A stretch of DNA of 64,000 bases from Vulcanimicrobiota bacterium (GCA_003135555.1 PLCF01000062.1:32001-96000), one strand, 5' to 3'. Shown: positions 14,546-60,000, numbered from the stretch's first letter. The notes: generated by a model not told the origin, from the letters alone. Made by a program: numbers and translations.

Positions 14546-15217
14546 GGCGGATCGCAGCCGCGACCGGGCGAGATCTCGCTGGCCCAACATGGCGTGCTGT
14601 ACCTAGACGAGCTCGCGGAGTTCTCGCGCGCAACGCTCGAAGTGCTGCGCCAACCGCTCGAAGAGGGGACGGTGACGATCGCACGCGCTGCCGCCACGTT
14701 GACGTTCCCCGCGCGCTTCACACTGGTCGCTTCGATGAATCCCTGCCCGTGCGGCTTTCGCGGCGACCGCACCGCGGATTGCCGCTGCGACGATGCCGCG
14801 GTGCAGAAGTATCTCGCCAAGCTGTCGGGGCCGCTGCTGGACCGGATCGATCTCCACGTCACCGTGTCGCGGGTGTCGTTCGACGAACTGGTCGGGCGCG
14901 GTCCTGCAGAGTCATCCGCAGCGGTGCGCGGACGCGTCGAAGCGGCCCGCAAACGTCAGGCCGCACGGCTACGCGACACGGAGGCAGTGACGAACGCGGC
15001 GATCCCCGCCGCCGACGTGCGGAAGCTCTGCCCGCTCAGCACTGAGCCGCTCGCGCTCCTTGAAGGCGCCGTCACGCGCGGCGCGCTCAGCGCACGAGCC
15101 TTCGACCGCGTCGTTCGCGTCGCGCGCACGATCGCGGATCTCGCCGGAGCCGACCGCGTCGCCCGCGAACACGTCGCAGAAGCGCTCGTGTACCGCGGCG
15201 CCGCGAGTCGTGGCTGA
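14546..15217 (+). pseudogene. comM: 3' part of comM (YifB family Mg-chelatase-like ATPase), interrupted by the transposon
   Basis: GGSQPRPGEISLAQHGVLYLDELAEF, MNPCPCG, SGPLLDRIDL, ARTIADL, EALVYR; N-terminal half absent and replaced by the transposon end. Confidence 0.92.
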
Positions 15218-15230
15218 GACATATTCGACG

Positions 15231-15521
15231 TTAATCGTGGCTGATGTAGAACTGCACGGTTTGGGCGAGCTCGTTGCCGGTGGCATCCTGCGCGGTCAGG
15301 CGGTATGTGCCGGCGGGTGTCGAGGCGTCGATGGCTACGGACACGCTGCCGCTGCCGCCCGAGAACAACAGCGTACCGCCGCCGAGCGTCGCGCCGCTGG
15401 TATCGTCGATCATGAGGATCTGAGCGCCGCCCGGCATGTCGGCGTAGTCGGCATTGACCTGCTCTTTGGTCTGGCCGGTATAGTCGAGCCTGGGGTCCGG
15501 GCCCTGGTCGTCGATGCTCAC
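15231..15521 (-). CDS. Small beta-rich hypothetical protein
   Basis: 96 aa, GTG start with GGAGG RBS; ends TPAGTYRLTAQ...LAQTVQFYI (Ig-like appearance). Confidence 0.65.
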   Translation of the reverse strand: MSIDDQGPDPRLDYTGQTKEQVNADYADMPGGAQILMIDDTSGATLGGGTLLFSGGSGSVSVAIDASTPAGTYRLTAQDATGNELAQTVQFYISHD

Positions 15522-15650
15522 AACGGCCTCCGACGTTCGACTGGATGGGATGCGACACCGTGTGCTTCCACGTTTTCACCCTTCCGCGCTCTTGCGCGCG
15601 CCGATGTCTTATCGAATCGCGCCGATGATCCTTGCCGTGGCTTTGGGGCA

Positions 15651-15745
15651 AGCCGGCTGCGCGGCGCCGGCGTAGTGACAAACGCGGCGATCGCGGCGGC
15701 GGACATCCGCCGGCTGTGTCCGCTCGACGCCGACACGCTCGCGGC
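15651..15745 (+). repeat. Diverged duplicate fragment of the comM 3' region
   Basis: Translates SRLRGAGVVTNAAIAAADIRRLCPLDADTLA versus comM ARLRDTEAVTNAAIPAADVRKLCPLSTEPLA (~14964-15057). Confidence 0.8.
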
Positions 15746-15817
15746 GCCAACCTCGAAGTCTGCTTAGCATTGGTGAGCTTTGGGCAGATTATCGGAATCA
15801 CGATGAAGGAGCGATGA

Positions 15818-16258
15818 ATGCCCGAAAACCCAACCATTACCGGCATTAGCCAGGTTGCGACCGTGTTCGTCCCGGTTGAGAACCAGGACCGAGCGCTCAA
15901 GTTCTACACTGAAAAGCTTGGATTCGAGAAGCGTGTTGACTTCCAATACGGTGGAGGCAGCCGCTGGATAGAAGTGGCCCCGCCGGGCTCGGTTGTCGCA
16001 CTGGCGCTCGTCCCGCCAAGTGAGGGCAGGCCTGTCGGCGGCGGCCAGACCCATTGTGCATTCACAACGAAAAACATCGAGGCTGAACACGCCGCCCTCC
16101 GAGATCGAGGCGTGGTCGTCGACGCCGAGATCGCGCGCAAGGGGAAACGTAGGTCAGGGCTTGTCTCGGTTGAGGTTTCCATTGCGGACCCTGTGCCGCC
16201 GCAGTTCTTCTTTCGCGACACCGAGGGAAATCGTTTCCTGATCGTCGATGCGGGGTGA
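15818..16258 (+). CDS. VOC/glyoxalase family protein
   Basis: VPVENQDRALKFYTEKLGF, RWIEVAPPG, FFFRDTEGNRF; AAGGAG RBS. Confidence 0.9.
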   Translation: MPENPTITGISQVATVFVPVENQDRALKFYTEKLGFEKRVDFQYGGGSRWIEVAPPGSVVALALVPPSEGRPVGGGQTHCAFTTKNIEAEHAALRDRGVVVDAEIARKGKRRSGLVSVEVSIADPVPPQFFFRDTEGNRFLIVDAG

Positions 16259-16334
16259 CCGGGCCAAGCCAGTAGACCTCGCTCTACATAGCAGGGCCAG
16301 GTCGATCGCCGATGGGTTGCAGAACCGGCTCGAC

Positions 16335-16573
16335 GCTCAAACCGTCTTGGGGACATATCCCTCGCGGTGGCCGATCGTTTGCGAGGCCATCGCAGCTTTG
16401 GCGGCGCGAGCCCAGGGTGAGTCGCAGGTTCCGTCCGACTCTGCCGCCGGCACTTCGGACTGGACGTCGAACAGGAATTGCGCTCGGGCGAGCGTCTGGG
16501 AGTTGACGACTGCACCGGCGTAGACGTCTTGCGCGAGCTGATGGTCGCAACCATGCCAGAGCGAGCGCGTGCC
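16335..16573 (-). repeat. Displaced copy of the last ~79 codons (with stop) of the ABC substrate-binding gene
   Basis: 239-bp direct repeat of 19695-19933; about 13 mismatches by manual comparison. Confidence 0.95.
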
Positions 16574-16691
16574 GCAAAAGCACCGATAAATCCTGCGACA
16601 GGCTTACTCGTCTTGAAGTTTGTTCGAGAATTGCGCGCCGAGCGGTCAGGGCATCCGCCGACCGCTCGGCGCAACTCGGCGCGACAACCGC

Positions 16692-18272
16692 TTACGGTAG
16701 GTTGGGGTCTCCGAGCACCTGGGAAGGCTCGCCCGGAGTCCATGTCTCGTAACTGCGGCAGTACCCAGTGTTGTCGTCGGCCCAGTAGTCGTAGTAGGAA
16801 TGCAGCACGCTGTAGGAGTTCTTGACGACATACGAGTTCGCCCCAAGCAACTCCGGCACGGGACCGTAGCCATCGATAGTCCCACAGTTGTAGGTGTACT
16901 GCTCTGCGTCAGTCGCCGCCAAGCAGTATCCATAAGAGTCAATCGCGCAGTCAGGCGGCGCGGGTACGACGAAGGGCCCCGCTGGCTGCCGACGAGTTGA
17001 GGAGGCTAGATAGCCCGTATCTACACCATCGAACGCTTCAGTGACGTATCCGTTTGGCGAGATTTTTGAGTCCGCGGCGTTAGCGCTGGGATAATTCTGC
17101 TGGCCGCCGTAGAAATTCGCCGGATTGGTAGAATGCACCATCTCGCAGTACGTACCGCTACACGTATTTTGCCATTCTCCGTACGCCACTTCAAGATAGT
17201 GCAGTGAGTTATCGCCATTTGCGTCTACCCCGAAATACGATCCGTCATTTGTCTGTGACGATTGCCCGATGCTTGTAACGCGGGAAATGGAACATACCGT
17301 GCAGGGAGTCTGGATCTGCGCTGCATCGAGCCCAGGATGGTTTACGTCCCCAGGGGCCACAGCAAACAGCCACGCTGCGTTTTGAAATGTTACCGTTTCG
17401 GTTGGCGAGTACGCGTTCGCCGGATTGTAACCGGGGATATTTCCAATAACGACATACACCATCGGCGCACCACCGATTTGGGCAGGATTTACCAGGCCGG
17501 CCATCATTCCCAGGTAGTTGCCGCATGCATACCGCGCGTTTGGGTTCTGCAAATTCTGATGAACACTTGCACTCAAGTATGGATTAATATCCGCGGCCCC
17601 GGTGTGTGTGAACATTCCGCCTTCGTAAAGTCCGCCAATTGCATCCCGCCACTCCCAGTACATAAATCCGTTGTCCCCGCTACTTGCCATGTATGTGTCA
17701 CCACAAGGCAGGAACACTACCGCCCAACCGCCCGTCACGCCGCACCGCGAGACATTGCGAACGTATGGACCCGTGCCACCGAAAGGATCGGGAGGGGAGC
17801 ACGAGCTGGAGTAGCTACGCGTTTCCCGTCGACTGCCGGCGACCGTAGTTGCCGCGCTCACGAGACCGCCGACCGTGCGGCTTTCGGCGCGCCGCTGCAG
17901 CTTCGCTTGCGTCGCCAGCGCTATGTTGTTGGAAAGCACTTTGTGACCGTCGAAGTATAGAAAATCTCCGCGACGATTTTTGGGCATAAGGCCCATCAGT
18001 TTGTGCGCCATGATGCGATCTGCGCCGGTTACACCCGGATCGATGTAGCTGTCGAGGTCGTGATCTGAGAGAACTTTGCCTCGCGCCGGCTCAAACTTGT
18101 TCGGAACAGCCCATACCGGCGTTGCGACCGCCGTTTTTGTGGAAATTGCATGAGAACCGTACGCGCTAGGTGTCGCCGGCGCAACGCCAGCGCCTTTCGG
18201 CGAACAGCTCACCAGGGCAAGGGAAGAGAGTAATAGAGTGGTCAGGGAAACCCGGATTCCCATTCGGTCCAT
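16692..18272 (-). CDS. Cys-rich secreted lipoprotein, hypothetical
   Basis: Lipobox-like LALVSC; Gly/Tyr/Cys-rich C-terminal region; low GC. Confidence 0.8.
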   Translation of the reverse strand: MDRMGIRVSLTTLLLSSLALVSCSPKGAGVAPATPSAYGSHAISTKTAVATPVWAVPNKFEPARGKVLSDHDLDSYIDPGVTGADRIMAHKLMGLMPKNRRGDFLYFDGHKVLSNNIALATQAKLQRRAESRTVGGLVSAATTVAGSRRETRSYSSSCSPPDPFGGTGPYVRNVSRCGVTGGWAVVFLPCGDTYMASSGDNGFMYWEWRDAIGGLYEGGMFTHTGAADINPYLSASVHQNLQNPNARYACGNYLGMMAGLVNPAQIGGAPMVYVVIGNIPGYNPANAYSPTETVTFQNAAWLFAVAPGDVNHPGLDAAQIQTPCTVCSISRVTSIGQSSQTNDGSYFGVDANGDNSLHYLEVAYGEWQNTCSGTYCEMVHSTNPANFYGGQQNYPSANAADSKISPNGYVTEAFDGVDTGYLASSTRRQPAGPFVVPAPPDCAIDSYGYCLAATDAEQYTYNCGTIDGYGPVPELLGANSYVVKNSYSVLHSYYDYWADDNTGYCRSYETWTPGEPSQVLGDPNLP

Positions 18273-18281
18273 TTGATTTTC

Positions 18282-19406
18282 CTACTTTCCGCAGTTGCGA
18301 GTTGACTTACGAAGTGGTCGAAGCAATACGACGCTGACATTCCTTCCTTTCGTGGCGAGGCCGAGGATCGAGCCGTCCGACGCAACAAAGTATGCGTCAG
18401 AAACGTGGACTTGACGTCCACTTAGCAGCTGATCGATCAGCGTCAATGTAGGCGGCGTTGCGTGCAGGTCGAAGACGAAGGCTGCGTTACTTCCCGCGTC
18501 GCGTGCTATAGATCCGACAACGAAGCCTCCCCCGCTGACGTCGTAGGCGGTCCCCTGAGCGCGCGAGATCATCTGCGCATGCGCGTTTGCATAGATCATT
18601 GGATGACCGTATGCATTCAGCGAGATACGATCGTCCCCGACGATGACTGAATTCGTGTTTGCTCCCCAGGCGACTCCTTGATACAGGTCGTGCAGAACGC
18701 CGGCACGCCACACGACGGCGTGCGGTCGCGTCGACCCACCATCCGCTGCGCTGAGCCGGTAGCCCCAGAACATGCCATCTTGGCCACCCGTTGGAATCGG
18801 GCCGCGTAACATCTTCTCCATACGACCATCTCGGAGTATTGCAGTCCCGACCGCTTCGGGGTAACCATTTGAATGCGCAGCTATGTACGATGGCTGTTCA
18901 GCGAGATCGTCGACGCCGAAGATCAATGCAGAGCTACTTCCGGCAACAATCCAGTAATTGTTTCGATCGGTAGTAGCCAGCGGAAGAATGCGATGCCAGC
19001 GTTCGCGTTCCCACATGAATGATGCCGCCTCAACACCACTATACGCGCCCGCAACGGGATTGGCGATGGTGACGATCGGTCTCCCTGATGCAAGCGCTAC
19101 GCTGACAAGCCGTGCCTGCGGAAAAGCACGTCGTCCCGACGCGTCGAGTTGTGCGGCAAAAAACGAAGCGCCAAGCAGCGCGGTGCTTGGCGGCGATAGA
19201 ATCGTTCTGCGGCCGGCTGAGATCAGTTCGACGCGGTCAAGGCTGCTCGTTTGGTTTCGAAGGAGAGCCGCAACGTTGCCGTCGCGATCCATGAATACGG
19301 TCGCAGGCTTTGCGAAAACCGGCGGACTCCACGTCGGTCGGCTTAGGTCGATATCGCCAAGCAAGGGCGTCAGCGCCAAACAGGCAACTGCTACCAGAGA
19401 CTGCAA
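18282..19406 (-). CDS. Secreted protein with HAF-like beta-propeller repeats
   Basis: Signal-like N-terminus; repeats GVAWGANTNSVIVG, GTAYDVSGGGFVVG, DAYFVASDGSILG; start uncertain. Confidence 0.65.
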   Translation of the reverse strand: MQSLVAVACLALTPLLGDIDLSRPTWSPPVFAKPATVFMDRDGNVAALLRNQTSSLDRVELISAGRRTILSPPSTALLGASFFAAQLDASGRRAFPQARLVSVALASGRPIVTIANPVAGAYSGVEAASFMWERERWHRILPLATTDRNNYWIVAGSSSALIFGVDDLAEQPSYIAAHSNGYPEAVGTAILRDGRMEKMLRGPIPTGGQDGMFWGYRLSAADGGSTRPHAVVWRAGVLHDLYQGVAWGANTNSVIVGDDRISLNAYGHPMIYANAHAQMISRAQGTAYDVSGGGFVVGSIARDAGSNAAFVFDLHATPPTLTLIDQLLSGRQVHVSDAYFVASDGSILGLATKGRNVSVVLLRPLRKSTRNCGK

Positions 19407-19696
19407 AACTAAGCCGATTGTCGGGCGGGCCTACCCGAATCCGAAAACACTACAAGCGTACTCGAGAGCGCGCGTTGACAAAGCAAGAAAAAGTCCATAT
19501 CGCCACGCTCGTCGGATCCCGACGATTCACCGAAGCACGCGAACCTTGGCATGGCACCACCCTTCTCATCCCATGTCACCGCAGCTCTTGCTAACATTGG
19601 CAACGTAGCACAAGGCCGTCAAGCTCTGCAAGGGGGCAACTGTTTCGCGTCGCGCTTCCCGGCGCTTCTAACGAGCCTTTGGGTGTTGAAGCAAGC

Positions 19697-20974
19697 TCAA
19701 ACCGTCTTGGGGATATATCCCTCGCGGTGGCCGATCGTTTGCGAGGCCATTGCAGCTTTGGCGGCGCGCGCCCAGGGTGAGTCGCAGGTTCCGTCCGACT
19801 CTGCCGCCGGCACTTCGGACTGGACGTCGAACAGGAATTGCGTGCGGGCGAAGGTCTTGGCGTTGACGACTGCACCGGCATAGACGTCTTGCGCGAGCTG
19901 ATGGTCGCAACCGTGCCACACCGAGCGCGTGCCTTTGTAGCCGTCGAAGGCATGATCGTCAAACGCGGCGGCGAGCTTCTCGGCGTCCGTGGTGTGGGCG
20001 GCCAGGATGCGATCGGTCAGCGCGACCAGGCCGCCGTAGCCGTAAAAGTGCCGCGCCGAGACGGGCGCGTTGATGGCGCGGTGGATGCGCGCCGCCAACT
20101 TGCGCGACGAATCCGACGCGTTCGGCGACCACAGCACCGAGAACGTCGCGCCGGCGATCGCGTCGAGCGGGACAACCTTGTAGTAGAAATCCTCGAGGTT
20201 GATCCCGGCGAGGTGCATCTGCTTCTGCATCCCGAACGCGACGAACTGTTTGATCGAGTTCGCCGCGTCTTGCCCGCTGTTTGCGAGGATCAGGACGTCG
20301 GCGCCGCTGTTACGAATCTTGGTGAGCGACGGCGAGAACTCGCTCGTGCCGAGCGGAACTACGTCGTGTCCCACCTCGGTGCCGCCGGCGCGCTGGAGCG
20401 CCTGGGACAGCTGCGCGTACGAGTCGCGACCCATCCCGTAGTCGGACTGCAGAAAGTACCACTTCTTGCCCAGCGCCAGCAACCGGTTTGCGAGCGGACG
20501 CATCACCATGCGCGCGTTGCAGCCGAAACGGTACGTCAAGCGCCGCGCTTTTTCGCCGGTCAGCGTCGAGTCGAACGGGCCCAGCGCCAAGTTGAAAATG
20601 CCGAGCTCGTCGACGAGCGGGCCCAGCGCGAGCCCGTTGGCGGAGGATGTCCCGCCGAAGAGCACGTCCACCTTCTCCTGGCCGATCAGCCGCCGCGCCT
20701 CCGTGGCGGCCGTGGCCGGGTTCGATGCGTCGTCACCGAACACGAACTCGAACGTCACGCGGCTGGTGCGGTTGATGTCCTCGAGCGCAAGCTGCGCGCC
20801 GGTCTTGTGCAGCGCGGCCACGTCGGCGAAGACGCCGCTGAACGAGTCCAGAAAACCGATCCGCACGACCGGCTTGCCGGCGCCGCGCGCGAACGACGGC
20901 AGCGCCGCGATCCCGGCCGCAGCCGCGCCGGCGCCCAGGACGCGAGCACGAGTCGGCGTCGAGCCATGCAACAT
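19697..20974 (-). CDS. ABC transporter substrate-binding protein (branched-chain amino acid/LivJ-like)
   Basis: Tat-like leader; VRIGFLDSFSG, DDASNPATA, EKVDVLFGGTSS, SDYGMGR motifs. Confidence 0.9.
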   Translation of the reverse strand: MLHGSTPTRARVLGAGAAAAGIAALPSFARGAGKPVVRIGFLDSFSGVFADVAALHKTGAQLALEDINRTSRVTFEFVFGDDASNPATAATEARRLIGQEKVDVLFGGTSSANGLALGPLVDELGIFNLALGPFDSTLTGEKARRLTYRFGCNARMVMRPLANRLLALGKKWYFLQSDYGMGRDSYAQLSQALQRAGGTEVGHDVVPLGTSEFSPSLTKIRNSGADVLILANSGQDAANSIKQFVAFGMQKQMHLAGINLEDFYYKVVPLDAIAGATFSVLWSPNASDSSRKLAARIHRAINAPVSARHFYGYGGLVALTDRILAAHTTDAEKLAAAFDDHAFDGYKGTRSVWHGCDHQLAQDVYAGAVVNAKTFARTQFLFDVQSEVPAAESDGTCDSPWARAAKAAMASQTIGHREGYIPKTV

Positions 20975-21049
20975 GGCGAGCGCTTCTCGGCTGGATCGAG
21001 CAGCCCTTTCGCTCAAGGGCCGCCGCATCCGCAAACGAAGTCCCGCCGC

Positions 21050-22165
21050 ATGCCCAGTTATCGCGCCGACAACGTCGGCAGCTTTCTGCGCCCCCAGGAA
21101 CTGCTCGACGCGCGGCACTCGGGCGCCGACCCGCAGCGGCTGAGCGCGATCGAAGATCGCGAGATCCGGCGCATCCTCGCCAAACAGCGGGAGCTCGGTT
21201 TCGAGATCTTCACCGACGGCGAGTTTCGCCGCGGCGGTTTCATGACCGATCTGACCGATGCCGTCGAGGGCTTCGACTCCGATGCCGGCGTCGCCCGAAC
21301 CTGGAACGCGGCCGACGTCGCCAAGGGGGTCGCGCCCAGCGCGGTGCGCGGCGTCGTTACCGAGAAGCTGCGTCAAACGCGACGCCTGACGGCACACGAG
21401 CTGCCGTTCTTGGAGCAGCACAGCCCCGGCCCGATCAAGATGACGCTGCCCAGCGCGACGCAGTTTCCGGCGATCGCCTACAAGAAGGGGATCAGCGAGC
21501 GCGCCTATCCGAACCACTCGGCGTTCTTGGCCGACGTGGTCGAGATCGTGGCGGCCGAGACGAAGGCGCTCGCCGCGGACGGTGTCGCCTACATTCAGAT
21601 CGACGCGCCCCGCTACAGCTACTACCTCGATCCGAAGTGGCGCGATTTTCTGCGCGCGGAATTCGGCGAGCCCGACGCGCTCCTGGACGAGGCGATCGCT
21701 GCGGACAACGCCTGCTTTCGCGCCGCGCGCAAGCCCGGCGTCACGCTCGCGATCCACCTGTGCCGCGGCAACAACCGCAGCCAATGGTATGCCAGCGGCG
21801 GCTACGACGCGATCGCCGAAAAACTGTTCAACGAGCTCGAAGTCGATCGGTTCCTGTTGGAATACGACGACGAACGCTCGGGCTCGTTCGAACCGCTGCG
21901 CCTGGTGCCCAAGGGCAAGACGGTCGTGTTGGGGCTCGTGAGCTCGAAATCGCCGCAGCTCGAAGAGCAGACGACGCTGCTGCGCCGCATCGATGCCGCG
22001 AGCAAGTACGTTCCGCTCCAAAACCTCGCACTCAGCCCGCAGTGCGGCTTCGCCTCGATGGCGGAGGGCAATCTCCTCACCGAAGCCGACCAATGGGCCA
22101 AGCTCCAACTCGTGGTCGACACAGCGCAGCAGGTCTGGGGTACTAGCGCACGCGGTGGAACGTGA
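21050..22165 (+). CDS. Cobalamin-independent methionine synthase II family protein (MetE C-terminal-like)
   Basis: RADNVGSFLRP, TDGEFRR, YIQIDAP, HLCRGN, LEYDDERSG, LSPQCGFAS. Confidence 0.92.
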   Translation: MPSYRADNVGSFLRPQELLDARHSGADPQRLSAIEDREIRRILAKQRELGFEIFTDGEFRRGGFMTDLTDAVEGFDSDAGVARTWNAADVAKGVAPSAVRGVVTEKLRQTRRLTAHELPFLEQHSPGPIKMTLPSATQFPAIAYKKGISERAYPNHSAFLADVVEIVAAETKALAADGVAYIQIDAPRYSYYLDPKWRDFLRAEFGEPDALLDEAIAADNACFRAARKPGVTLAIHLCRGNNRSQWYASGGYDAIAEKLFNELEVDRFLLEYDDERSGSFEPLRLVPKGKTVVLGLVSSKSPQLEEQTTLLRRIDAASKYVPLQNLALSPQCGFASMAEGNLLTEADQWAKLQLVVDTAQQVWGTSARGGT

Positions 22166-22568
22166 CGGTGCCGCCGGCGTTCACGTCGCGCCATACCATC
22201 GTGTTCGCCGTGGTGAAGGTATAGCGGTACATCCCACCGGGTGGTTTGGCGCTGGGCTCGTAGTGACCCGTGCCGACCGCAGCGCCGACGACGTAGTGGC
22301 TCTTCGGCATCCAATCGGTGACGCTGCGACCGACGATGTGGTTCGGGAACACGCGGTACGTCCCGGACTGACCCGTCACGTACGTACCGCAGCGGTCGAT
22401 TTCGTTGTAGGTTCCGGTCGTTGTCATGACGAGATCGAACTGGCAGCTCATCCCGTTGATGGGGTATGCGGCGCGCCACGACCCGGCGAACGGATCCTGC
22501 GCGGCGCTCGCGAGCGGCACGGCGCAGAGCGCAAGGGCAGCGAGAAATGTGAATATGTTCTTCGGCAC
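22143..22568 (-). CDS. Secreted hypothetical protein (beta-barrel-like)
   Basis: GTG start, signal FLAALALCAVPLASA, DPFAGSW motif. Confidence 0.7.
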   Translation of the reverse strand: MPKNIFTFLAALALCAVPLASAAQDPFAGSWRAAYPINGMSCQFDLVMTTTGTYNEIDRCGTYVTGQSGTYRVFPNHIVGRSVTDWMPKSHYVVGAAVGTGHYEPSAKPPGGMYRYTFTTANTMVWRDVNAGGTVTFHRVR

Positions 22569-22659
22569 ACGGGGTCGTTCATCACGGAAGCTTCGGTTCA
22601 TGCTTTCCGTTGACGGAAAGCGCGGGCTTCGTCGGCCAAAGGGGTGAACGCCCGTGTCG

Positions 22660-22857
22660 ATGCCTGAACCGAAGTCCGGTGCGAAAAAGCCGCGCAAGCG
22701 CGGCGGCTCGCGTTCGTGCCGCAATAAGAACGGCTCGCCGAAGGCCGCGTTCACGACCAAGAAGCTCGCCGAGCGCGCGATCCCCGGCACGAGCGTTCGC
22801 CTCGCGCCCTACGCCTGCGCCAAGCACGGCTGGCACCTCGGGCACCGCAAGCGCTAG
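22660..22857 (+). CDS. Small basic protein with a possible C/H zinc motif
   Basis: SCRNK...KAAFTT...PYACAKHGWHLGH; fills the gap between neighbours. Confidence 0.55.
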   Translation: MPEPKSGAKKPRKRGGSRSCRNKNGSPKAAFTTKKLAERAIPGTSVRLAPYACAKHGWHLGHRKR

Positions 22858-23915
22858 GACGGCGTTCGGACCACCGGTGCGCTGCGCGGCACCGCGAAGC
22901 CCGACCGCGAGACGGGGACGCTGTCGGGACGCACCACGCCGGCGTGCATGTCGTCCCAAGCGCGCTGCAGCGATGGGACGAGCGTCCGCAGCGCGTGCGA
23001 TCCGCGCGGCTCCTCGTAGAAGCTGACCGGCAGTCCCATCCCCGCGAGAAAGCCCGCCGTCTGCTCGCCGTACTTGGTCGGAATGCTGGTGTCGTCGGCG
23101 CCGGTCACGACGTACACGCGCATATCGCTCCAGGCGATCGAGACGGGACGCACGCCGCTGTTGAGGATCGCACCGGAGACGCACAGCACCGCCGACCAGC
23201 GGTAGCCGCCGCGCGGCCCGATCTTGAAGACGCTGAAGCCGCCCATCGAATAGCCGGCCAGAAAGGTGCGGCCGCGATCGACCGGCAGCGCCGCCTGCAC
23301 CGCCGAGAGCAGATCGTAGACGTCGGTCGCCGCGGGCTCGGCATAGTCGTAGATACCGCGGCCGTAGGGGGCGACGAGGATGGTGCCGGTGCGGTCGGCG
23401 AGCCGGCGCAGCCAGGGCTGTCCGAGCAGCTCGGATTCCGTTTGCGGGTTTCCGTGCAGCACCATCGCCAGCGGTGCGCTCGCTTTCAAGCTCGCGGGGA
23501 CGTACACCGCGACGAGTTGCCAGACGCGGTCGACGCGCGACGGCACGAGCATTTCGTGCAAGCCGGGCGTTGCGCGCAACGGCGCCGCAGCACCGGTGAC
23601 GAGCTGGTCGACGGCGTCGAGGTCGAGCCGGGCGATGGCGGCGACGGTCTCGGCCCAATCTTCGGTCGGGTACCCGTCGGGCGGAGGCGTTTGCTGGCGC
23701 TCGAGATCGTCGAACAGGCGGCGGTGGAAGTTCGCGGCGCCCTCGGTGCCCAGCTCGACGTCGATGCGAGCGCGCGCGGCCGCATAGCGCTCCAACGCTT
23801 CGCCGATCGTGCCCGGCCCGAGCACCGCCGCAGCGACCGCGACCGGCCGCACGACCGTGCCCTGCATCGCAAGCACCAAGGCGAGCGCCGACAGCCGCAC
23901 CGTCCGCAGCATCAT
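22854..23915 (-). CDS. Secreted esterase / PHB-depolymerase-like alpha/beta hydrolase
   Basis: Signal peptide; VYVPAS..PLAMVLHG, GYSMGG, GADD, GSH motifs. Confidence 0.8.
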   Translation of the reverse strand: MMLRTVRLSALALVLAMQGTVVRPVAVAAAVLGPGTIGEALERYAAARARIDVELGTEGAANFHRRLFDDLERQQTPPPDGYPTEDWAETVAAIARLDLDAVDQLVTGAAAPLRATPGLHEMLVPSRVDRVWQLVAVYVPASLKASAPLAMVLHGNPQTESELLGQPWLRRLADRTGTILVAPYGRGIYDYAEPAATDVYDLLSAVQAALPVDRGRTFLAGYSMGGFSVFKIGPRGGYRWSAVLCVSGAILNSGVRPVSIAWSDMRVYVVTGADDTSIPTKYGEQTAGFLAGMGLPVSFYEEPRGSHALRTLVPSLQRAWDDMHAGVVRPDSVPVSRSGFAVPRSAPVVRTPS

Positions 23916-24005
23916 GCTCGGAGTGTAGCAGCCCGGACGGCGAGGAGCGAGGTCCAAGAGCGTCGCGCTGACGGTACCCCGGGGCGCGCGGCGAACGGAC
24001 CAGGA

Positions 24006-24482
24006 GTGCACCCCGAAGCGGAACGCTTGATCGCCGCGCACCGGCTGGCGCGGCATCCCGAAGGCGGCTGGTATCGCGAGACGTACCGCAGCGCCGAGCG
24101 CGTCACCACGTCGCGCGGCAGCATGCGCAGCGCGACGACCTCAATCTACTTTCTGCTCACGCCCGAGACATTTTCCGCATTCCACCACCTGTCGTCGGAC
24201 GAGACGTGGCACTTCTATCGCGGGGATCCGGTGAACATCGAGGTGATCGACGCCAGCGGGGCGCACGAAACACGCGTCGTGGGCGCCGGCGACGCGCTGC
24301 AAACCACGATCGGGGGCGGCGCGTACTTTGCCGCCCACGTCGATGCGGCCGGCGGCTATGCGTTCGTCGGCTGCGACGTGGCGCCGGGCTTTGAATTCGC
24401 CGACTTCCAGCTCACCACGCGCTCGATGCTGACCGCGGCCTATCCGCACCTCGGTCCGCTCATCGCGCGCTACACCCGTTGA
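24006..24482 (+). CDS. Cupin_5 (DUF985) protein
   Basis: HPEGGWYRETY, TSIYFLL, DETWHFY.G, GCDVAPGFEFADF. Confidence 0.92.
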   Translation: MHPEAERLIAAHRLARHPEGGWYRETYRSAERVTTSRGSMRSATTSIYFLLTPETFSAFHHLSSDETWHFYRGDPVNIEVIDASGAHETRVVGAGDALQTTIGGGAYFAAHVDAAGGYAFVGCDVAPGFEFADFQLTTRSMLTAAYPHLGPLIARYTR

Positions 24483-24499
24483 CGCGCAGAGAAGTCGCG

Positions 24500-24970
24500 A
24501 TGCTGGTGCGGCCCATCGAACCGTCCGACGAGGACGCGTACCGTGCGATCTTGGAAGCGACCAGTGCCGACGATCGCTATTGCCGGTTCTTCCACTTCGT
24601 CGACCACTTCGACCCCGAGGAGGTGCACCGTTTCGTCGAGACGCGAGCAGACATGATCGGCATGATCGCTTTCGATGGTGCGGTGCCGATGGGTGCCGCG
24701 CACGCCGCGCTGCTGGACGACAAGACCGCCGAACTCGCTATCGTCGTCGCGAGCGGCGCACGCCATCTCGGGGTCGGAACTGCGTGTCTCGATGCGCTCA
24801 TCGCGCGACTCAAGGAACGCGGATTCCGGCGCTTGATCGCCTGCGCGCTGCGCGAGAACAGTCCCTTCGAGCACTTGGCGCAACATGCAGGCTTCCACGT
24901 GGAAACATCCGACGGCGCCGCGCTGCGTTGGGTGTTGGCACTCACCGCCGAGCCGGAGCCGGCGTCGTGA
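24500..24970 (+). CDS. GNAT acetyltransferase
   Basis: VRPIEPSD, RYCRFF, AELAIVV..RHLGVGT, LREN motifs. Confidence 0.85.
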   Translation: MLVRPIEPSDEDAYRAILEATSADDRYCRFFHFVDHFDPEEVHRFVETRADMIGMIAFDGAVPMGAAHAALLDDKTAELAIVVASGARHLGVGTACLDALIARLKERGFRRLIACALRENSPFEHLAQHAGFHVETSDGAALRWVLALTAEPEPAS

Positions 24971-25875
24971 CCGCCGTGAGCGAGCCCGCCTTCGCACCGG
25001 CCAACGGCATCCGCTTGTGCTACCAGACCTTCGGCGACCCGTCGCACCCGCCGCTGCTGCTCATCATGGGACTCGCGGTGCAAATGATCGTGTGGGACGA
25101 CGACTTCTGCGAAATGCTCGCTGCGCGAGGCTTCCGGGTGATCCGCTTCGACAACCGCGACATCGGCAAGTCGACGACGTTTCCGCAAGCGCGCGCACCG
25201 AGTTTCGTGGAACTGCTCTTCTCGCAGGCGACCGGGTTGCGCTTCCGCGTGCCGTACACGTTGCGCGATATGGCGGCGGACTCCGCGGGGCTCTTGGACG
25301 CGCTCGGCGTCGCGAGCGCGCACGTCGTCGGCGCCTCGATGGGCGGCATGATCGCCCAAGAGATGGCAATCGCGTTCTCCGGGCGGGTGACCACGCTGAC
25401 GTCGCTCATGTCGACGACCGGCGACCCCAAGCTGCCGCGGGCGCAGGCCAAGGCGCTGCGGGCGCTGGCGAAGCCCACGCCGCGCGACCGTGCCGGCTTC
25501 GTGCGGCGCTATGTGGAGACATGGGCAGTTCTCGCCGGCGACGGCTTTCCGTACGATCCCGACCGCATGGCCCGGCAGGGCGCGCTCGCCTACGACCGCG
25601 GCATCAACCCGCCCGGGGTCGCGCGCCAGATGCTCGCGATCATCGCGTCGGGAAATCGCACCAAGGCGCTGCGCGGACTGGCGGTGCCCACGCTGGTCCT
25701 CCACGGCACCCGCGATCCGCTGATCCCGGTCGACGCGGGCTCGGAGACCGCGCGCGCGATCCCGGGCGCGCGGCTGATGCTCATCGACGGCATGGGACAC
25801 TGGATGCCGCGCGAAGTGTGGCCACGGATCGTCGACGCGATCGCCCAGCATGCGTCCGGGACCAAACCCGCCTGA
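24967..25875 (+). CDS. Alpha/beta hydrolase
   Basis: LLLIMGL, RFDNRDIGKS, VGASMGGMIAQ, HGTRDPLIP, GMGH. Confidence 0.92.
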   Translation: MTAVSEPAFAPANGIRLCYQTFGDPSHPPLLLIMGLAVQMIVWDDDFCEMLAARGFRVIRFDNRDIGKSTTFPQARAPSFVELLFSQATGLRFRVPYTLRDMAADSAGLLDALGVASAHVVGASMGGMIAQEMAIAFSGRVTTLTSLMSTTGDPKLPRAQAKALRALAKPTPRDRAGFVRRYVETWAVLAGDGFPYDPDRMARQGALAYDRGINPPGVARQMLAIIASGNRTKALRGLAVPTLVLHGTRDPLIPVDAGSETARAIPGARLMLIDGMGHWMPREVWPRIVDAIAQHASGTKPA

Positions 25876-25905
25876 GCCGGCTCACCGCGCGAACGGAGCT
25901 CTACC

Positions 25906-27609
25906 GTGTCTGAAACGCCCTGGATTTCGTCCTATCCGTCGCCGGCACGCTGGGACGCCCCGCTCGCGGTGGGCCCGGTTTACGAGATCCTCGACACCGC
26001 CGCGCAGCGCTTTGGCGATCGTCCCGCGGTCGAGTTCATGGGCCGCCGCGCAACGTACCGCCAACTGCACGCGCTGGCGAACCGCGCCGCCAAGGGCTTC
26101 CAACAGCTGGGCGTGCGGCCCGGCGTACATGTCGGACTCTACCTGCCCAACACGCCGCACTATCTCGTCGCGTTCTTCGGCGTGCTCAAGGCCGGCGGAA
26201 CCGTCGTCAACTACTCGCCGCTCGATGCCGCGCAAGTCCTCGCGCACAAGGTCGAGGACAGCGAGACCTCGATCCTCGTCACGCTCGACGTTCCGACGCT
26301 GCTCCCGCAGATGGAAGCGCTGCTCGGGACAAGCGGTTTGCGGACGCTCGTCGTCGGCGGCTTGGACGATCTGGCGGGCTTCCCGGAGTACGCCGATGCG
26401 GCCGCCTCCAACGGCGCGGGGGCCGTCGCCAAGGATGGACATGTGCCGTTCCGCAGCCTGCTGGCGAACGACGGCGCGTATCAGGCGTATCCGATCGATA
26501 ATCCGAGCGAGTCGATCGCCGTGCTGCAGTATACCGGCGGCACGACCGGACTGCCCAAAGGCGCAGTCCTGACGCATGCCAACTTGACGGCGGCGATGAG
26601 TCAGTATCTCGAGACCACGCGGCTCGAGCCGCCGGTACTCACGCCGGGCGAGGAGCGCACCTTGTTGGTGCTGCCGCTCTTCCACATCTACTCGCTCTCC
26701 GCGGTCATGCTGCTGTGCGTCCGGCTCGGCGCGGAGATCATCTTGCACACGCGCTTCGACGTCGAAGCCGTGGCCAAGGACCTCGCCGCGAAAAAGATCA
26801 CGCTCTTCATGGGCGTCCCGACGATGTTCACGGCGCTCTTGGCCTATCCCGGGCTCGCGGAGCTCGACCTCACCTCGATCAAGTTCACCGGCTCAGGTGG
26901 CGCGCCGCTGCCGCTCGAAGTGCAGGAGCGCTTCCGCACCGTCACCGGCAGCGAGCTCAACGAAGGCTGGGGGATGACCGAGACGTCGCCCTCGGGGACG
27001 TTTACGCCGATGCGCGGGATGCGCAAGGCGGGCTCGTGCGGGATCCCCGTTCCGGGTGCCACGATCAAGTTCGCGAGCGTCACGGATCCCACGACGTACG
27101 TGCCGCTGGGCGAGCGCGGCGAGATCTGCATCAAAGGTCCCAACATCATGAAGGGCTATTGGAAGAACGCCCAGGCGACCGCCGACGTCATGACCGCGGA
27201 CGGTTTCTTGCGCACCGGCGACGTGGGCTACATGGACGCCGACGGTTTCGTCTTCATCGTCGACCGCATCAAGGACATGCTCTTGTGCGGCGGCTACAAC
27301 GTCTACCCGCGCAACATCGAAGAAGCGATCTACACCCACCCCGCCGTCGCCGAGGTCTCGGTGATCGGGATCCCCGACGAGTACCGCGGCCAGTCGCCCA
27401 AGGCGTTCATCGCGCTCAAGCCGGGCGCGACGCCGTTCAGCCTCGACGAGCTCAAGGGTTTCCTCAAAGACAAGCTCGGCAAACACGAGATGATCGGCGT
27501 CATCGAGTTTCGCGACTCGTTGCCCAAGACCGCAGTCGGCAAGATCCTCAAGACGGCGCTCTACGAAGAGGAAGCCCAACGCCGCGCCGCGGCGCCGGCG
27601 AAGGTCTGA
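25906..27609 (+). CDS. Long-chain fatty acid/dicarboxylate-CoA ligase (PimA-like)
   Basis: YTGGTTGLPKG AMP-binding motif, EGWGMTETS, RTGD, DRIKDM, LPKTAVGK. Confidence 0.93.
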   Translation: MSETPWISSYPSPARWDAPLAVGPVYEILDTAAQRFGDRPAVEFMGRRATYRQLHALANRAAKGFQQLGVRPGVHVGLYLPNTPHYLVAFFGVLKAGGTVVNYSPLDAAQVLAHKVEDSETSILVTLDVPTLLPQMEALLGTSGLRTLVVGGLDDLAGFPEYADAAASNGAGAVAKDGHVPFRSLLANDGAYQAYPIDNPSESIAVLQYTGGTTGLPKGAVLTHANLTAAMSQYLETTRLEPPVLTPGEERTLLVLPLFHIYSLSAVMLLCVRLGAEIILHTRFDVEAVAKDLAAKKITLFMGVPTMFTALLAYPGLAELDLTSIKFTGSGGAPLPLEVQERFRTVTGSELNEGWGMTETSPSGTFTPMRGMRKAGSCGIPVPGATIKFASVTDPTTYVPLGERGEICIKGPNIMKGYWKNAQATADVMTADGFLRTGDVGYMDADGFVFIVDRIKDMLLCGGYNVYPRNIEEAIYTHPAVAEVSVIGIPDEYRGQSPKAFIALKPGATPFSLDELKGFLKDKLGKHEMIGVIEFRDSLPKTAVGKILKTALYEEEAQRRAAAPAKV

Positions 27610-27611
27610 TC

Positions 27612-27998: not shown

Positions 27999-28014
27999 GC
28001 GGGGCCGAAGGAGC

Positions 28015-29669: not shown

Positions 29670-29783
29670 GCCGGGCGAAAAGAGTACGGGCCCGCTCGCT
29701 TGGCGAAGGCCGCGTAGCGCGAACTGCGGTTCGCACCCCGGCGTGTGGGGAACGACCACACGAGGGAGGACGGTTACGACGAC

Positions 29784-31099: not shown

Positions 31100-31283
31100 G
31101 GCGCATCCTCCTACTCCGGTCGCTCACGCCTTGGCGGTACGTCCTCGCGGGCCCTCGGGCTTTTTGCTCGACGTCACAGCCGGAACGTGCGCGCAGTCGC
31201 TTACGGAGTGCGATGACCGTCGCCGCGGACGACGGCATCGACACGCGCGCTCAGCGCGAACGCCGCTGCGGCTGGGGACCGAG

Positions 31284-31541: not shown

Positions 31542-31545
31542 GGAG

Positions 31546-54851: not shown

Positions 54852-54868
54852 TCAGGAGCACGATCGCC

Positions 54869-57800: not shown

Positions 57801-58117
57801 GTGCCGCGATCGTCGCGCTGGTGCTCGGCGACGCGTCGGTGCAGCACAACGTCTCGCGCGTCGTCATTCTGGGAAGCATGCTGACGAACGGTCTCCTCTA
57901 CGCGACGACACTGCGCTGCTCGGGGAACCGCTTCGACGAAAACTCGGCGCTGTTCTCCTGCTGGGGCGCGAGCACCGCCACCGTCGCCGTCGGAAACTCG
58001 GGATCGCATTGCTTCTCGTTCACGCCGTGGTCGACGGAGTACCAGATCGCGAATCTGGTCGACCCCGCCGGGCGCAGCTTCTGCGACAGCGTTAGCGTCG
58101 CCCGGGGAATGAGGTAG
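54869..58117 (+). CDS. DUF6519 domain protein with a C-terminal right-handed beta-helix (fibre-like)
   Basis: MKADFSRLTF, QQGRVWTDADVNE, GRLYVDG, ENALYRVEIH, FKWSNENG, DYWTFSART; repeated IxxNxI beta-helix motifs. Confidence 0.88.
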   Translation: MKADFSRLTFDRRQHYAGVLQQQGRVWTDADVNEWVEIVLDRFRTQSRDAFGAAWRPDAAAGFKLAVNGTTVTIGAGRLYVDGMLAELDAAAGYDAQIDFPFPAQTIWARGITGGAPQGDWPGIAAADGSTDLFYVEVWQRHLTALNDEAERDDVAGAPDWNAIPSVGDYIRERALGGVDTCTRLRTVAQVKRWPLPNGVAADCATACAELKKTLTTDGTLLVTVPPIPPVVDPCQQPLDGGYNGRENALYRVEIHTPGNAGTATFKWSNENGAMTVRVNAAKPYVIVPAGTALTLRSVGRDQQTQLQSGNVVELCGEDTELGVWRNALAQIVDGPTAQPDGTWQVKLDADVLVPRAPFLRRWNAKDAPIPALGTQAALDVPAEIDVQFFDTGGATTGTPFFRAMDYWTFSARTLTREIEPPDITQVAQHVRGIDRAVTCLALVAWSSSPAEPPTGFLIDCLPPPQQQDTCGCCCTAVVRPPPKDQQGRDETPVLRAAVASLPREGGTICIDPGFYALLSGPVIIDRPGVTIRGCGERTRIFAPQGAFVAETVASLTRIEDLAIHMFDVPAIVSDDGVQGIAVVGTSVTAEVSTRSYAYSLSGLNLLVERNHVVDACGVEIRTGSAGVTIARNVFERGIGRAISLGSPVTGPANDQFVRTVRIRDNEIRDMAAEAIAMPFWVENEPVTLIVADDLRIDGNLIERCLADRLEGVGFVSHGLTVDGNGHPTITTRVFEAASMSAGTASGGTTSAGGSAPPPSLVTNVAPVFLPIAQRVEIEDNRIFCDAAGLATSGIAFFLGLGVAICDNHVTQLGQNVVPAAALPVPRAGISMVALHPSIPVPGAFGADPNGVTDPLLAAGAAALRVAGNIVQIEGAPAIALLGIGTVSITDNDLARRGPPFPGELALAAGQVNIDAPVVECIVAGSSASQGGLAAFSSQHLTAPTQGFDESTQLVAGELVFDGNRCLLDLAQAQTEERAAIVALVLGDASVQHNVSRVVILGSMLTNGLLYATTLRCSGNRFDENSALFSCWGASTATVAVGNSGSHCFSFTPWSTEYQIANLVDPAGRSFCDSVSVARGMR

Positions 58118-58120
58118 GTC

Positions 58121-58735
58121 ATGCCCACCAGCAAGAAAGTCACGCCGCCAGCGATCGCTAAGCAGAGCACCGATCAGCTAGTCGCCCAAGCGCTCAGCAC
58201 CAACTCGGCGCTGGGCGACGCGGTCACCGCGCGCTTCGCCGGGATCGGATTCCTCGGCGCGGATCTCATCGCTGTGGTGACCGCGAAGACGAGCGCGCCG
58301 AGCACCGCGCTCTCGGCGTACAAGAACCGCCTTTCCGAGATGACGCTCGCGGCGAAGCAGCGCGTGGCGGCCGACCCGCAGACGTTCGTGGTGCTCGGGC
58401 GGGTCGTCGACGCCACGGGCGCCGGCCTCAAAGGTTACAAGCTCACGTTGAGCGACGCGAACGGCGATCTCTCGCGCGTCGCACCAGTCGTCAGCGACGC
58501 GGACGGGTTCTTTACTCTGCACCTGCGGCTGGGCGAGCTACCGCCGTCGGTCGTCGGCGGTTCGATCTACGTGCGCGTCAGCGATCCGAAGGGCAGCGAG
58601 ATCTTCGCTCCGTCGGCTCCGCTAACGGTCCGCGGCGGCGAGGTCGGCTCGTTCTCCGCGATATCACCGGTCGCCGCGACTCCGAACGCTATTCCCAAAG
58701 CAACACCGAAGGCGAGCGCAACAGCGAGCCCCTAG
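58121..58735 (+). CDS. CIS-associated protein with a carboxypeptidase-regulatory-like domain
   Basis: GRVVDATGAGL...SDADGFF; last gene of the operon. Confidence 0.7.
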   Translation: MPTSKKVTPPAIAKQSTDQLVAQALSTNSALGDAVTARFAGIGFLGADLIAVVTAKTSAPSTALSAYKNRLSEMTLAAKQRVAADPQTFVVLGRVVDATGAGLKGYKLTLSDANGDLSRVAPVVSDADGFFTLHLRLGELPPSVVGGSIYVRVSDPKGSEIFAPSAPLTVRGGEVGSFSAISPVAATPNAIPKATPKASATASP

Positions 58736-58752
58736 CGCGGTGCGGGCGCCGA

Positions 58753-60000
58753 TCAAGCTGCGCCGGTGACGACCAGCGCGGCGTGCAGTACGACGCCGGC
58801 GGCGCCGCCGACCAGGCTGCCGTTGAGGCGGATGAACTGCAAGTCCGGCCCGAGCTCGGTCTCGATCTTTTCGGTGACGACGTCGGCGTCCCAACGCTGC
58901 ACGACCTCGGTGATGAGTAACGAGAACTGCTGCTGAAAACGCGCCAGGACCGACTCTGCGACGTCGCACAGCCGCACGTTGAGCCGCTCGACGATCACCG
59001 GCTCGTCGAGCATGTTGCGAGCGATTCTCGCAGCCACATCGGCGAAGCGCGGGCCGGCCTCTGATGACTGGGCCGATGGGTGCTCCAGGCGCGCTTTGAG
59101 CGCGCTCCACGCCGCCGCGACGAGCCCGTCGAGCTCGGAGCCGTGCAGGATCGCGGCCTTGATCCGCTCGGCCTGCTCGTGCATCTCCGGGTCGTCGTGC
59201 AAACGCACGACGAGCTCGCGGACGTAGGCGTCGAACTGCAGGCGCATCGGATGCTCCGGCGTGCGCGCGATCTCGTCGACCAGATCGATCATCCCGTCGA
59301 CGAAGCGGTTCACGATGTAGGCATCGACGAACCCCGGTGTCAGCAACGAACGCTTCGCGAAGCGGCGTTTGATCTCGGGGCGTTGCGCGTTCAACCACGC
59401 GGCGACCACGGGCAGGATGCGCGCGAGGACGCGCTGGTGCGCACCGTCCGCGGTCGCGATCTCGAGCACCGCGCCGGCCGCGCGCGAGAGATCGAGACGC
59501 TCGACCTCCTCGGCGAGGACCTTGCCGACGACGGCCCGGATCTCGGCATCGTCGAGGGCGTCGACCAGCCGCGGCACGATCGCGCGCGCGTTCGCGAACA
59601 GTGCGGCGCAGTTTGCGGGGACCGCGAACCAGCGCAGCAGGTAGCCGGCAAGGTCGAGCTCGCGCAGCTTCGAGGCGATGATGGTCGGGGTCAAGAAGTT
59701 CTGCTCGACGAAGATCCCGAGCTGCACGCCGATGCGGTCTTTGTTGTGTGGAACGATCGCGGTATGCGGTAGGCGCAGTCCGCCGGGATGGCGGAACAGC
59801 GCGACCACCGCGAACCAATCGGCGAGGCCGCCGATCAACGCCGCTTCGCTGAAGGCCTCGACCCAGCCCAGGATCGGATACGCCGGCCGCAGGCGTGCGG
59901 CGATTACGAAAACGATCGCCATGACGCCCAACAGGGCCGTGGCGATCGTCTTCATCTGCCGTAGGCGAGCGCGCTTGTCGTCGGCACCCGCGAACGTCAT
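58753..60000 (-). CDS. DUF445 family membrane protein
   Basis: EAALIGGLADWFAVVALFRHP, HTAIVP, DLQFIRLNGSLVGG. Confidence 0.93.
   Translation of the reverse strand: MTFAGADDKRARLRQMKTIATALLGVMAIVFVIAARLRPAYPILGWVEAFSEAALIGGLADWFAVVALFRHPGGLRLPHTAIVPHNKDRIGVQLGIFVEQNFLTPTIIASKLRELDLAGYLLRWFAVPANCAALFANARAIVPRLVDALDDAEIRAVVGKVLAEEVERLDLSRAAGAVLEIATADGAHQRVLARILPVVAAWLNAQRPEIKRRFAKRSLLTPGFVDAYIVNRFVDGMIDLVDEIARTPEHPMRLQFDAYVRELVVRLHDDPEMHEQAERIKAAILHGSELDGLVAAAWSALKARLEHPSAQSSEAGPRFADVAARIARNMLDEPVIVERLNVRLCDVAESVLARFQQQFSLLITEVVQRWDADVVTEKIETELGPDLQFIRLNGSLVGGAAGVVLHAALVVTGAA

Follow-up and report, generated by a model that had tools for sequence, protein, structure and literature searches.

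Displaced 3' ends of ordinary genes around cargo DNA in a Vulcanimicrobiota bacterium: possible scars of insertion without a dedicated integrase

Analysis of a 64,000-nucleotide stretch of DNA from a Vulcanimicrobiota bacterium (GCA_003135555.1; here called the window, bases 32001-96000 of the 127-kb contig C97) showed that three ordinary genes, encoding a DUF445 protein, a substrate-binding protein (SBP) of the Peripla_BP_6 family, and ComM, are accompanied by displaced copies of their own 3' ends. All five confirmed tail copies (SBP, DUF445 A, B, and C, and comM) lie 3' of the parent gene and in the parent's orientation. These features are real and vary between strains. The best reading is that they are the scars of insertion-duplication at gene 3' ends, with homology on one side and independent of a recombinase, although we judge its chances to be evenly balanced; the insertions look like the work of general recombination instead of a dedicated integrase.

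The DUF445 locus carries much of the argument. Downstream of the intact gene lie a 26-kb cargo and, beyond it, three tail copies (A, 42 nt; C, 201 nt; B, about 80 nt), all of which had been recognized in a preliminary description of this DNA and were recovered in our searches. Copy C matches the live tail (32218-32418 against 58792-58991) at 91.5% over 201 nt by self-BLASTN and in 64 of 66 residues by tblastn. Across 61 codons the two differ by 13 synonymous and no nonsynonymous changes (synonymous divergence dS 0.36; nonsynonymous divergence dN 0), and with 45.2 synonymous sites in 183 the chance that all 13 would be synonymous is about 1e-8 under neutrality. This dS lies within the range found between species of the genus (0.27-0.49), other species differing by 6.5 to 8.5 nonsynonymous changes. 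Copy A, which differs from the live tail by 7 synonymous and 0 nonsynonymous changes in 12 codons, has a local alignment score of 44 (shuffle maximum, 42) and matches relatives by blastn with E values of 1.7e-7 and 9e-11. The purely synonymous divergence, which had been claimed beforehand, implies that copies C and A were once parts of working alleles. For copy B, the B2 part scores 33 against a shuffle maximum of 26 and matches a relative with an E value of 2.5e-5; since it extends upstream into a piece corresponding to about aa 325-339, copy B is a tail allele with an internal deletion. A and B2 have identical synonymous states relative to the live gene, so that one allele is present two times. 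Each attached tail continues its intact gene in frame.

Cargo genes are cut at the junctions between these copies, as the preliminary description had stated. An outer-membrane-type gene survives as a 5' fragment with 76-85% matches to three relatives (G010:C13, G042:C368, and G023:C332), which stop at 32415-32419; it is truncated exactly at 32418/32419, the joint with copy C, where the two parents overlap by the 4 nt TCGA (32415-32418). This is the one joint at which microhomology can be read against both parents, those of the other joints being too diverged or unknown. The open reading frame (ORF) of a BTAD regulator runs into copy A and takes its C-terminus and stop codon from it. On the far side of the copies, homology to 10 relatives stops at 30571-30578, the end of an alpha/beta hydrolase gene. 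The mosaic DNA that follows gave no Pfam match and includes a fragment, 31283-31919, that is 75% identical to G059:C3 and others; the ORFs homologous to this fragment and to the outer-membrane-type fragment in relatives gave no Pfam family. One further candidate, a probable tail copy of the hydrolase gene proposed at 31181-31216, proved to be noise, its score of 26 falling within the shuffle range (mean, 22; maximum, 36) and tblastn finding nothing.

At the SBP gene, the proposed tail copy was likewise recovered: the segment from 16335 to 16573 matches that from 19695 to 19933 at 94.6% over 239 nt by self-BLASTN, up to the stop codon plus 2 nt, and tblastn agrees. The cargo between them has two ORFs, for which Pfam, PADLOC, NCBIfam, and PHROGs gave no match. 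That at 18282-19406 probably encodes a DUF3466-like beta-propeller (Atlas structure, TM 0.7 to DUF3466 clusters) and that at 16692-18272 a secreted protein with only weak Atlas leads; neither looks like a recombinase. The comM copy was upheld more weakly, by a tblastn match in the window of 32 aa at 62.5% identity (E value, 3.6e-4). Its nucleotide identity is 76-78% to the comM genes of three relatives (E values, 5e-14 to 3e-11) and 72% to the window's own; the fragment has a dS of 0.74 and a dN of 0.28. No further long repeats were found at the joints, and the window holds no tRNA or tmRNA gene.

Gene families of the window ORFs were assigned with Pfam, tyrosine and serine recombinases were sought by six-frame searches with PF00589 and PF00239, and repeats were located by self-BLASTN and tblastn, with local alignment against shuffled sequence and blastn against relatives for the short copies. 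Tallies from comparisons with genus genomes (SBP orthologues, the sheath of an extracellular contractile injection system [eCIS], the 374-aa SBP cargo protein, and fragments) include one genome flagged as unpublished, G043, on which no claim rests. For the strain comparison, contigs of four runs from three studies were aligned to window positions 14001-34000. The source itself is a metagenome bin of 3.57 Mb in 98 contigs, 84% complete and with 3.3% contamination, at about 67% GC, and the runs that hold the window DNA are peat metagenomes.

The repeats could be imagined to be chimeras of co-assembled strains, a view favored by the makeup of the bin, by the coexistence of related strains in the samples, and by the listed contigs of the probable source run, which break inside repeats; linkage across repeats in that run depends on the original assembler. 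This is very improbable. The copies differ at 13 to 17 positions and so are distinct molecules, and contigs of all four runs support the joints; the objection from assembly chimeras, which the preliminary description had raised against itself, is not borne out. In the probable source run, X1, a 1149-nt contig (15236-16384) comprises the comM end, the comM fragment, a glyoxalase-family gene, and the start of the SBP copy, and a 3222-nt contig (16523-19744) leads from the displaced SBP copy through the cargo to the attached copy. Three further runs have contigs of about 26.5 kb that start at 32563 and contain the joint between the BTAD gene and copy A, with 4 differences in 1438 nt; altogether, contigs of four runs in three studies hold this joint and the island.

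Both the SBP cargo and copy C are polymorphic among strains. Depth over 16669-19336 is about zero in X5 and X6, where a contig connects 16280 with 19719 through 76 other letters, so the 3.1-kb SBP cargo is missing from those strains. The empty-site contig also substitutes the spacer and the last 24 nt of the SBP tail, for which reason this insertion polymorphism looks like whole-block exchange. At copy C, exactly the interior (32228-32414) is replaced by 523 other letters in X3, X5, and X6; an exact 22-mer scan of metagenome contigs for this variant to the right of the 32418 joint gave 0 matches. Divergence between strains is patchy along the window (0-4%), which implies that allele replacement by homologous recombination is frequent here, and it drops from 2.4% at 30982-32227 to 0.3% at 32563-34000, which indicates the edge of a recombination tract at copy C.

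In the process that we propose, DNA of a relative would carry a chromosomal gene end together with foreign sequence and would enter by homologous pairing within the resident gene end. Closure would follow either by an illegitimate join of a linear piece (homology-facilitated illegitimate recombination [HFIR]) or, if the piece is circular, by a single crossover (Campbell type). One full end would stay attached, and because of this the gene would stay whole; the other end would become a dead fragment past the cargo. Repeated events and deletions would have left the junkyard at 30.6-33.8 kb, and the last large event would have set the BTAD-eCIS island between DUF445 and the older remnants. What we infer is which way each event ran, where the DNA came from, how it entered, and that RecA was needed. 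Six-frame searches found no tyrosine or serine recombinase domain on the whole of C97 or on two other contigs with similar repeats, C25 and C16, and Pfam found no recombinase in the ORFs scanned within 14546-60000. The earlier claim that no recombinase gene is present stands for that interval and, as to tyrosine and serine recombinases, for the contig; it had overlooked a Tn7-like module next to the interval. RecA and DprA are present in the genome.

The live DUF445 gene itself may be mosaic. Its affinity to relatives shifts near nt 810 of 1248 (window position about 59,190): sites shared with only one of the relatives L004 and L007 split 93:56 before nt 810 and 26:54 after it (Fisher p 1.7e-5), three other pairs of relatives shift likewise (p 0.005-0.02), and four pairs show no shift (p 0.05-0.66). 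This signal, which is suggestive only, would fit an imported DUF445 end that arrived with the island; against it counts that the break point was picked after looking at the data.

Comparison with relatives and with the rest of the genome yields points for the proposed insertion-duplication and several against it, and these are gathered here and in the next two paragraphs. The hydrolase/DUF445 pair was followed at 33 other loci, namely, 10 genus genomes, 16 metagenome loci (those of 30 that held both genes in convergent order, the other 14 having ended early or being arranged otherwise), and 7 named genome contigs; the three sets were not de-replicated against each other. Twenty-three of the 33 sites are empty (gaps to about 120 nt), 9 are filled with 0.55-6.6 kb, and 1 is without the DUF445 body. 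Filled-site cargo includes TPR regulators, an M50B peptidase, Uma2, HicAB with a small rve remnant, a split phosphoesterase, and a PQQ propeller, and it holds no tyrosine or serine recombinase. A displaced DUF445 tail is found at 1 of the 9 filled sites, L156, as a 49-nt end (81.6% identity; E value, 9e-7) 2.0 kb downstream, past HicAB cargo, which is an independent case in favor; the other 8 filled sites have none. Incoming tails that arrive with cargo and push the resident tail outward, which the preliminary description had seen as a repeated process, fit DUF445 in the window and in L156, fit the SBP gene poorly, and are not general. Its two pairs of convergent core genes fared similarly: the hydrolase and DUF445 are such a pair, but the other pair consists of a split remnant of comM and an SBP gene that is not syntenic core. 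SBP orthologues (87-89% identity) lie at other places on other contigs in relatives, and neither the glyoxalase gene nor the cargo was found beside them within the 1.5 kb compared.

A scan of this genome, using a crude GC3-based set of 2,595 ORFs and repeats of at least 75% identity, 60-600 nt long and at most 60 kb apart, returned 49 direct-repeat pairs. Seven loci are of the tail type (two in the window, one each on C25, C16, and C19, and two on C52, as candidates), of which two of the five outside the window (C25 and C16) were inspected. Nine further loci are of the head type, which is as common as the tail type in this crude scan, in which most loci are uninspected. At C25:31524-34889 (L139:3525-6890), the last 397 nt of a gene for a 275-aa coiled-coil protein, which adjoins a flotillin gene, are repeated at 97% identity 2.5 kb downstream, the copies differing in the last 4 codons and enclosing a 2.1-kb cargo of two convergent glycosyltransferase-type genes. 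Inside this repeat there are 6 synonymous and 6 nonsynonymous changes. C16 has a 141-nt repeat of 88.7% identity after a LigD-type gene. The C25 and C16 repeats count as independent cases in favor of the proposal, the changes inside the C25 repeat against it.

Nor did the genus genomes yield a source for the cargo. Of 43 genus genomes, 16 have homologues of the eCIS sheath, with identities of no more than 55%, and those that were cross-checked lie on contigs other than that of DUF445; the 374-aa SBP cargo protein has relatives of at most 33% identity in 5 of the 43; and no donor arrangement was found in a search of the 43 genomes with these two proteins. As to competence, comM is broken in this strain, and ComEC was not found in the 84%-complete bin. 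Finally, copy C is without the last 14 codons and A and B2 duplicate one allele, neither of which the simple model predicts.

The SBP pair bears on an alternative in two steps, in which a gene end is duplicated locally together with an insertion (by template switching, break repair, or unequal exchange) and afterwards the dead copy decays or the live end undergoes allele replacement, no tail arriving with cargo. We regard this as unlikely on the whole. The preliminary description had held the two best DUF445 copies to be once-functional alleles instead of decaying local duplications, which is correct for these copies. The SBP copies differ by about 7 synonymous and about 9 nonsynonymous changes (dN/dS, about 0.4), and they cluster solely together, being 94.6% identical to each other and at most 85% to five orthologues; copies grouping only with this genome's own allele, with a dN/dS near 1, had been named in advance as telling against displacement by incoming tails, and we take this pair to tell against it in that way. 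The displaced copy carries unique derived nonsynonymous changes relative to the five orthologues. The empty-site allele of other strains agrees with the attached copy at 11 of 12 discriminating sites, which makes the displaced copy the odd allele. The SBP pair, read from these comparisons, looks like a decaying local copy. With the equal numbers of changes in the C25 pair and the patchy divergence between strains, local duplication with allele replacement would suit the SBP and C25 pairs at least as well as one-sided insertion. It would need an extra event for the DUF445 dS of 0.36 with a dN of 0, and it leaves unexplained why cargo genes lying among three tail copies are cut. In the displaced SBP copy, moreover, unique change amounts to about 4%, whereas strains that differ in the insertion show about 1.3% neutral divergence; the copy is therefore older than the polymorphism. 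HFIR, a single crossover of a circle, and duplication with allele replacement are processes that the sequence cannot separate.

A site-specific recombinase, acting in trans or since lost, could use the last 40-50 nt of DUF445 as an attachment (att) site at which elements were stacked in tandem, with the live DUF445 end, copies A and B, and the copy in L156 left as att-like repeats. Three short copies do start 11-14 codons before the stop codon and finish 5-8 nt after it; copy A and the live end bracket a 25.9-kb island, the relative L156 has a similar copy of 49 nt, and elsewhere the genome encodes four tyrosine (C9, C55, and C69) and one serine (C64) recombinase domain. The short DUF445 copies thus have similar limits, with common runs of up to 9 nt, but the 5' limits of copies at different loci vary (12, 66, 79, and 132 codons), copy C and the SBP and C25 repeats are misfits, being far longer than att cores, and no recombinase lies in any cargo or on the contig. 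The 3' limit that the copies have in common falls where the sequence conserved in empty sites ends, and so need not be a joint. A hairpin at the DUF445 stop codon as a target was also considered; five folds gave z-scores of -1.1 to +0.6, that is, no signal. We consider site-specific insertion quite unlikely. Integrase-borne replacement ends are known from phage 21 and e14 in icd of Escherichia coli and from islands in tRNA genes or gene 3' ends. In these, as here, the substitute 3' end is mostly synonymous and the resident end comes to lie on the far side; there, however, an integrase is encoded and the crossover core is fixed, whereas here the contig has no integrase and the repeats measure 42-397 nt.

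If the copies arose by insertion-duplication without a recombinase, they might in addition be working handles: RecA would loop the cargo out as a circle with one copy, and the circle could re-enter any relative that has the gene and leave that gene unbroken. We offer this as a bold and unlikely reading, and it is equally unlikely that repeats of 200-400 nt make islands, the 26-kb eCIS island among them, mobile without an integrase of their own. The divergence drop at copy C hints that a strain-exchanged tract may end in the tail repeats. The 26.5-kb contig from 32563, if colinear, ends near 59,150, within DUF445. Repeats that serve as RecA-dependent attachment sites would, if this is true, amount to a general form of integrase-free island mobility.

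A process with the same outline has been described at rhs, contact-dependent inhibition (CDI), and type VI secretion system (T6SS) loci. According to two reports, a new 3' part and additional genes come in together there, moving the old 3' part downstream without a change of orientation, no integrase being involved (Jackson et al. 2009, PMC2935791; Kirchberger et al. 2017, PMC5361080). To account for orphan 3' regions of rhs, the first invokes a circular intermediate that inserts by homology, and the second proposes HFIR for T6SS effector-immunity arrays. The same reports describe strings of orphaned 3' regions, and here too there are same-orientation 3' fragments downstream. In those systems, the swapped ends are different toxins with immunity genes and the swap itself is selected; here, in contrast, old and new ends specify one protein (dN 0), ordinary genes are involved (DUF445, Peripla_BP_6, and comM), the cargo is unrelated to them (an eCIS cluster and secreted proteins), and no polymorphic toxin with a variable C-terminal domain and an immunity gene is seen. 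The displaced tails are a variant of C-terminal displacement and HFIR, at ordinary genes with synonymous ends.

HFIR combines one homologous anchor with an illegitimate join at microhomology, by which foreign DNA is trapped; it has been shown in the laboratory in competent species, usually with a deletion in the recipient. Its occurrence in natural transformation was reportedly described by de Vries and Wackernagel in 2002, Prudhomme et al. in 2002, and Meier and Wackernagel in 2003. The window shares with it the single homologous anchor and the foreign DNA and, at the one joint that can be read against both parents, may share the join at a short microhomology. It differs in that the recipient's gene end is duplicated, and the evidence for competence is mixed (RecA and DprA found; ComEC not found in the 84%-complete bin; comM split).

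Many hotspots of gene gain have neither integrase nor transposase, and the arrival of their cargo is mostly inferred. Displaced ends with synonymous-only divergence provide a readable record of recombination partners at such places. They suggest that ordinary genes, too, undergo the displacement process of toxin loci, and this in an uncultured phylum (relatives of the present bacterium are named Candidatus Elarobacter / Eremiobacterota), and they can adjoin a 26-kb eCIS island.

The coordinates of the features are collected in Table 1.

Table 1. Features of the window and its surroundings (window positions unless a contig is named)
Feature	Position	Strand	Remarks
Tn7-like module	9862-14401	-	tniQ 9862-11013, tnsC/tniB 11017-11883, tnsB 11880-13838, tnsA 13742-14401
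Tn7-like element, right end	14400-14545		Element of 42.7 kb, C97:3845-46545
comM 3' remnant	14546-15217	+	Residues 296-512 of a relative's 521-aa frame (tblastn with the relative's full ComM)
Displaced comM fragment	15648-15743	+	32 codons, internal to the tail, 430 nt past the comM stop
Glyoxalase-family gene	15818-16258	+	Pfam Glyoxalase 2.9e-12; between comM fragment and SBP tail copy
Displaced SBP tail copy	16335-16573	-	Last 79 codons, stop, 2 nt
SBP cargo	16574-19694	-	3.1 kb, GC 0.56-0.60; ORFs 18282-19406 and 16692-18272
SBP gene (Peripla_BP_6)	19695-20860	-	Pfam 1.6e-64; ends at 19697; attached repeat copy 19695-19933
Esterase, AMP-ligase, PhaC-like block	Between SBP gene and hydrolase		Pfam
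Alpha/beta hydrolase	29745-30578	+	Convergent core neighbor of DUF445 in relatives
Mosaic DNA	30579-31906		Includes 31283-31919, part of a member of a gene family that is multicopy in the genus
DUF445 copy B	31907-31987	-	B1, about aa 325-339; B2 (31907-31945), last 11 codons and stop
DUF445 copy C	32218-32422	-	aa 336-401
Outer-membrane-type gene, 5' fragment	32419-32801	-	Signal peptide and about 125 codons, one internal stop
DUF445 copy A	32841-32882	-	Last 12 codons, stop, 5 nt
SARP/BTAD regulator	32846-33709	-	Pfam BTAD 3.9e-19; left edge of eCIS island
eCIS cluster	33892-58735	+	Pfam
Intact DUF445	58753-60000	-	Pfam DUF445 3.3e-93; last 42 nt pair with A and B
SDR gene and P450-reductase fusion	Beyond DUF445 (58753-60000)		Pfam

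The 26-kb cargo next to DUF445 is, by its Pfam content, a complete eCIS cluster, with component genes in one operon-like block: sheath, Pvc16_N, AAA ATPase, eCIS_core, tube, spike, baseplate J, and DUF6519. Three genus genomes (G048, G041, and G050) likewise have a BTAD gene beside their eCIS cluster. For the hydrolase, all Pfam matches fall under the gathering cut-off (Abhydrolase_6, 1.6e-05, 26.1 against 26.3 bits).

Some observations concern the hydrolase/DUF445 site in relatives. In L025 (G022:C57), a deletion has spared the DUF445 tail, leaving the last 33 codons at 5795-5893, with the hydrolase gene on one side and the SDR gene on the other. Three genomes have in the DUF445/hydrolase gap a pair of small ORFs of about 105 aa each, the first with a weak HTH_11 match (L020:11221-12083, L156:10350-11194, and L163:9416-10278); in L156 the pair lies just before the displaced tail copy.

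Head-type loci of the genome scan lie on C25, C50, C52, C55, C56, and C94, where the first 60-300 nt of a gene or its upstream region is copied further upstream; such copies may represent heads that were displaced, or else regulatory sequence held in common. On C50 there are three, at 58.6, 61.1, and 63.7 kb. At C69:5628-16258, a tyrosine recombinase domain (5628-6176) adjoins a 181-nt repeat (7310-7490 and 16095-16258) of 78% identity; this locus may be a classical integrase island and a possible comparator within the genome.

Around the SBP gene, 19697-22108 forms one open frame of 803 aa that joins the gene to its upstream neighbor, which in relatives correspond to two matches about 40 nt apart. 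In all four runs a contig links 21355 and 25716 through 23 other letters; because its shorter side matches over no more than 23 nt, this may be a repeat or another organism. In L021, comM is directly convergent with a homologue of the window gene at 22854-24056.

The comM gene of the window is itself interrupted. A Tn7-like transposon borders the studied span, with tnsA, tnsB, tnsC, and tniQ (Pfam: TniQ, 5.9e-24; TniB, 3.4e-73; Mu-transpos_C, 1e-09; TnsA N- and C-terminal domains, 1e-14 and 2.2e-05), and both of its ends can be read, with the terminal sequence TGTCA(A/T)TTCC, repeated TnsB-type sites, and a 5-bp target duplication, GGCGG. It divides comM into the first 299 codons (C97:2954-3850) and a 3' part (C97:46546-47196). 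Since the right end at 14545 lies inside comM, the comM of the window is a 3' remnant only, and in agreement Pfam matches it to Mg_chelatase over profile positions 93-207 only, plus Mg_chelatase_C. A target preference for comM is known among Tn7-like transposons. The present element shares with those of comM the genes tnsABC and tniQ, the terminal repeats, the 5-bp duplication, and the insertion into comM, and it accounts for the split of comM, not for the displaced tails. That this neighbor produced the duplications has next to no likelihood: it does adjoin the span and, by depth, occurs in the same runs as the SBP cargo, but its ends (C97:3845 and 46545) and the 5-bp duplication fall within comM, and the tail copies neither touch these ends nor carry terminal repeats. 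Judged by depth, X5 and X6 nearly lack the element. Among the genes that it carries are a PD-T4-7 defence-type gene (2797-3711), a class-3 lipase, a phosphatase-like ORF, and a double-zinc-ribbon protein.

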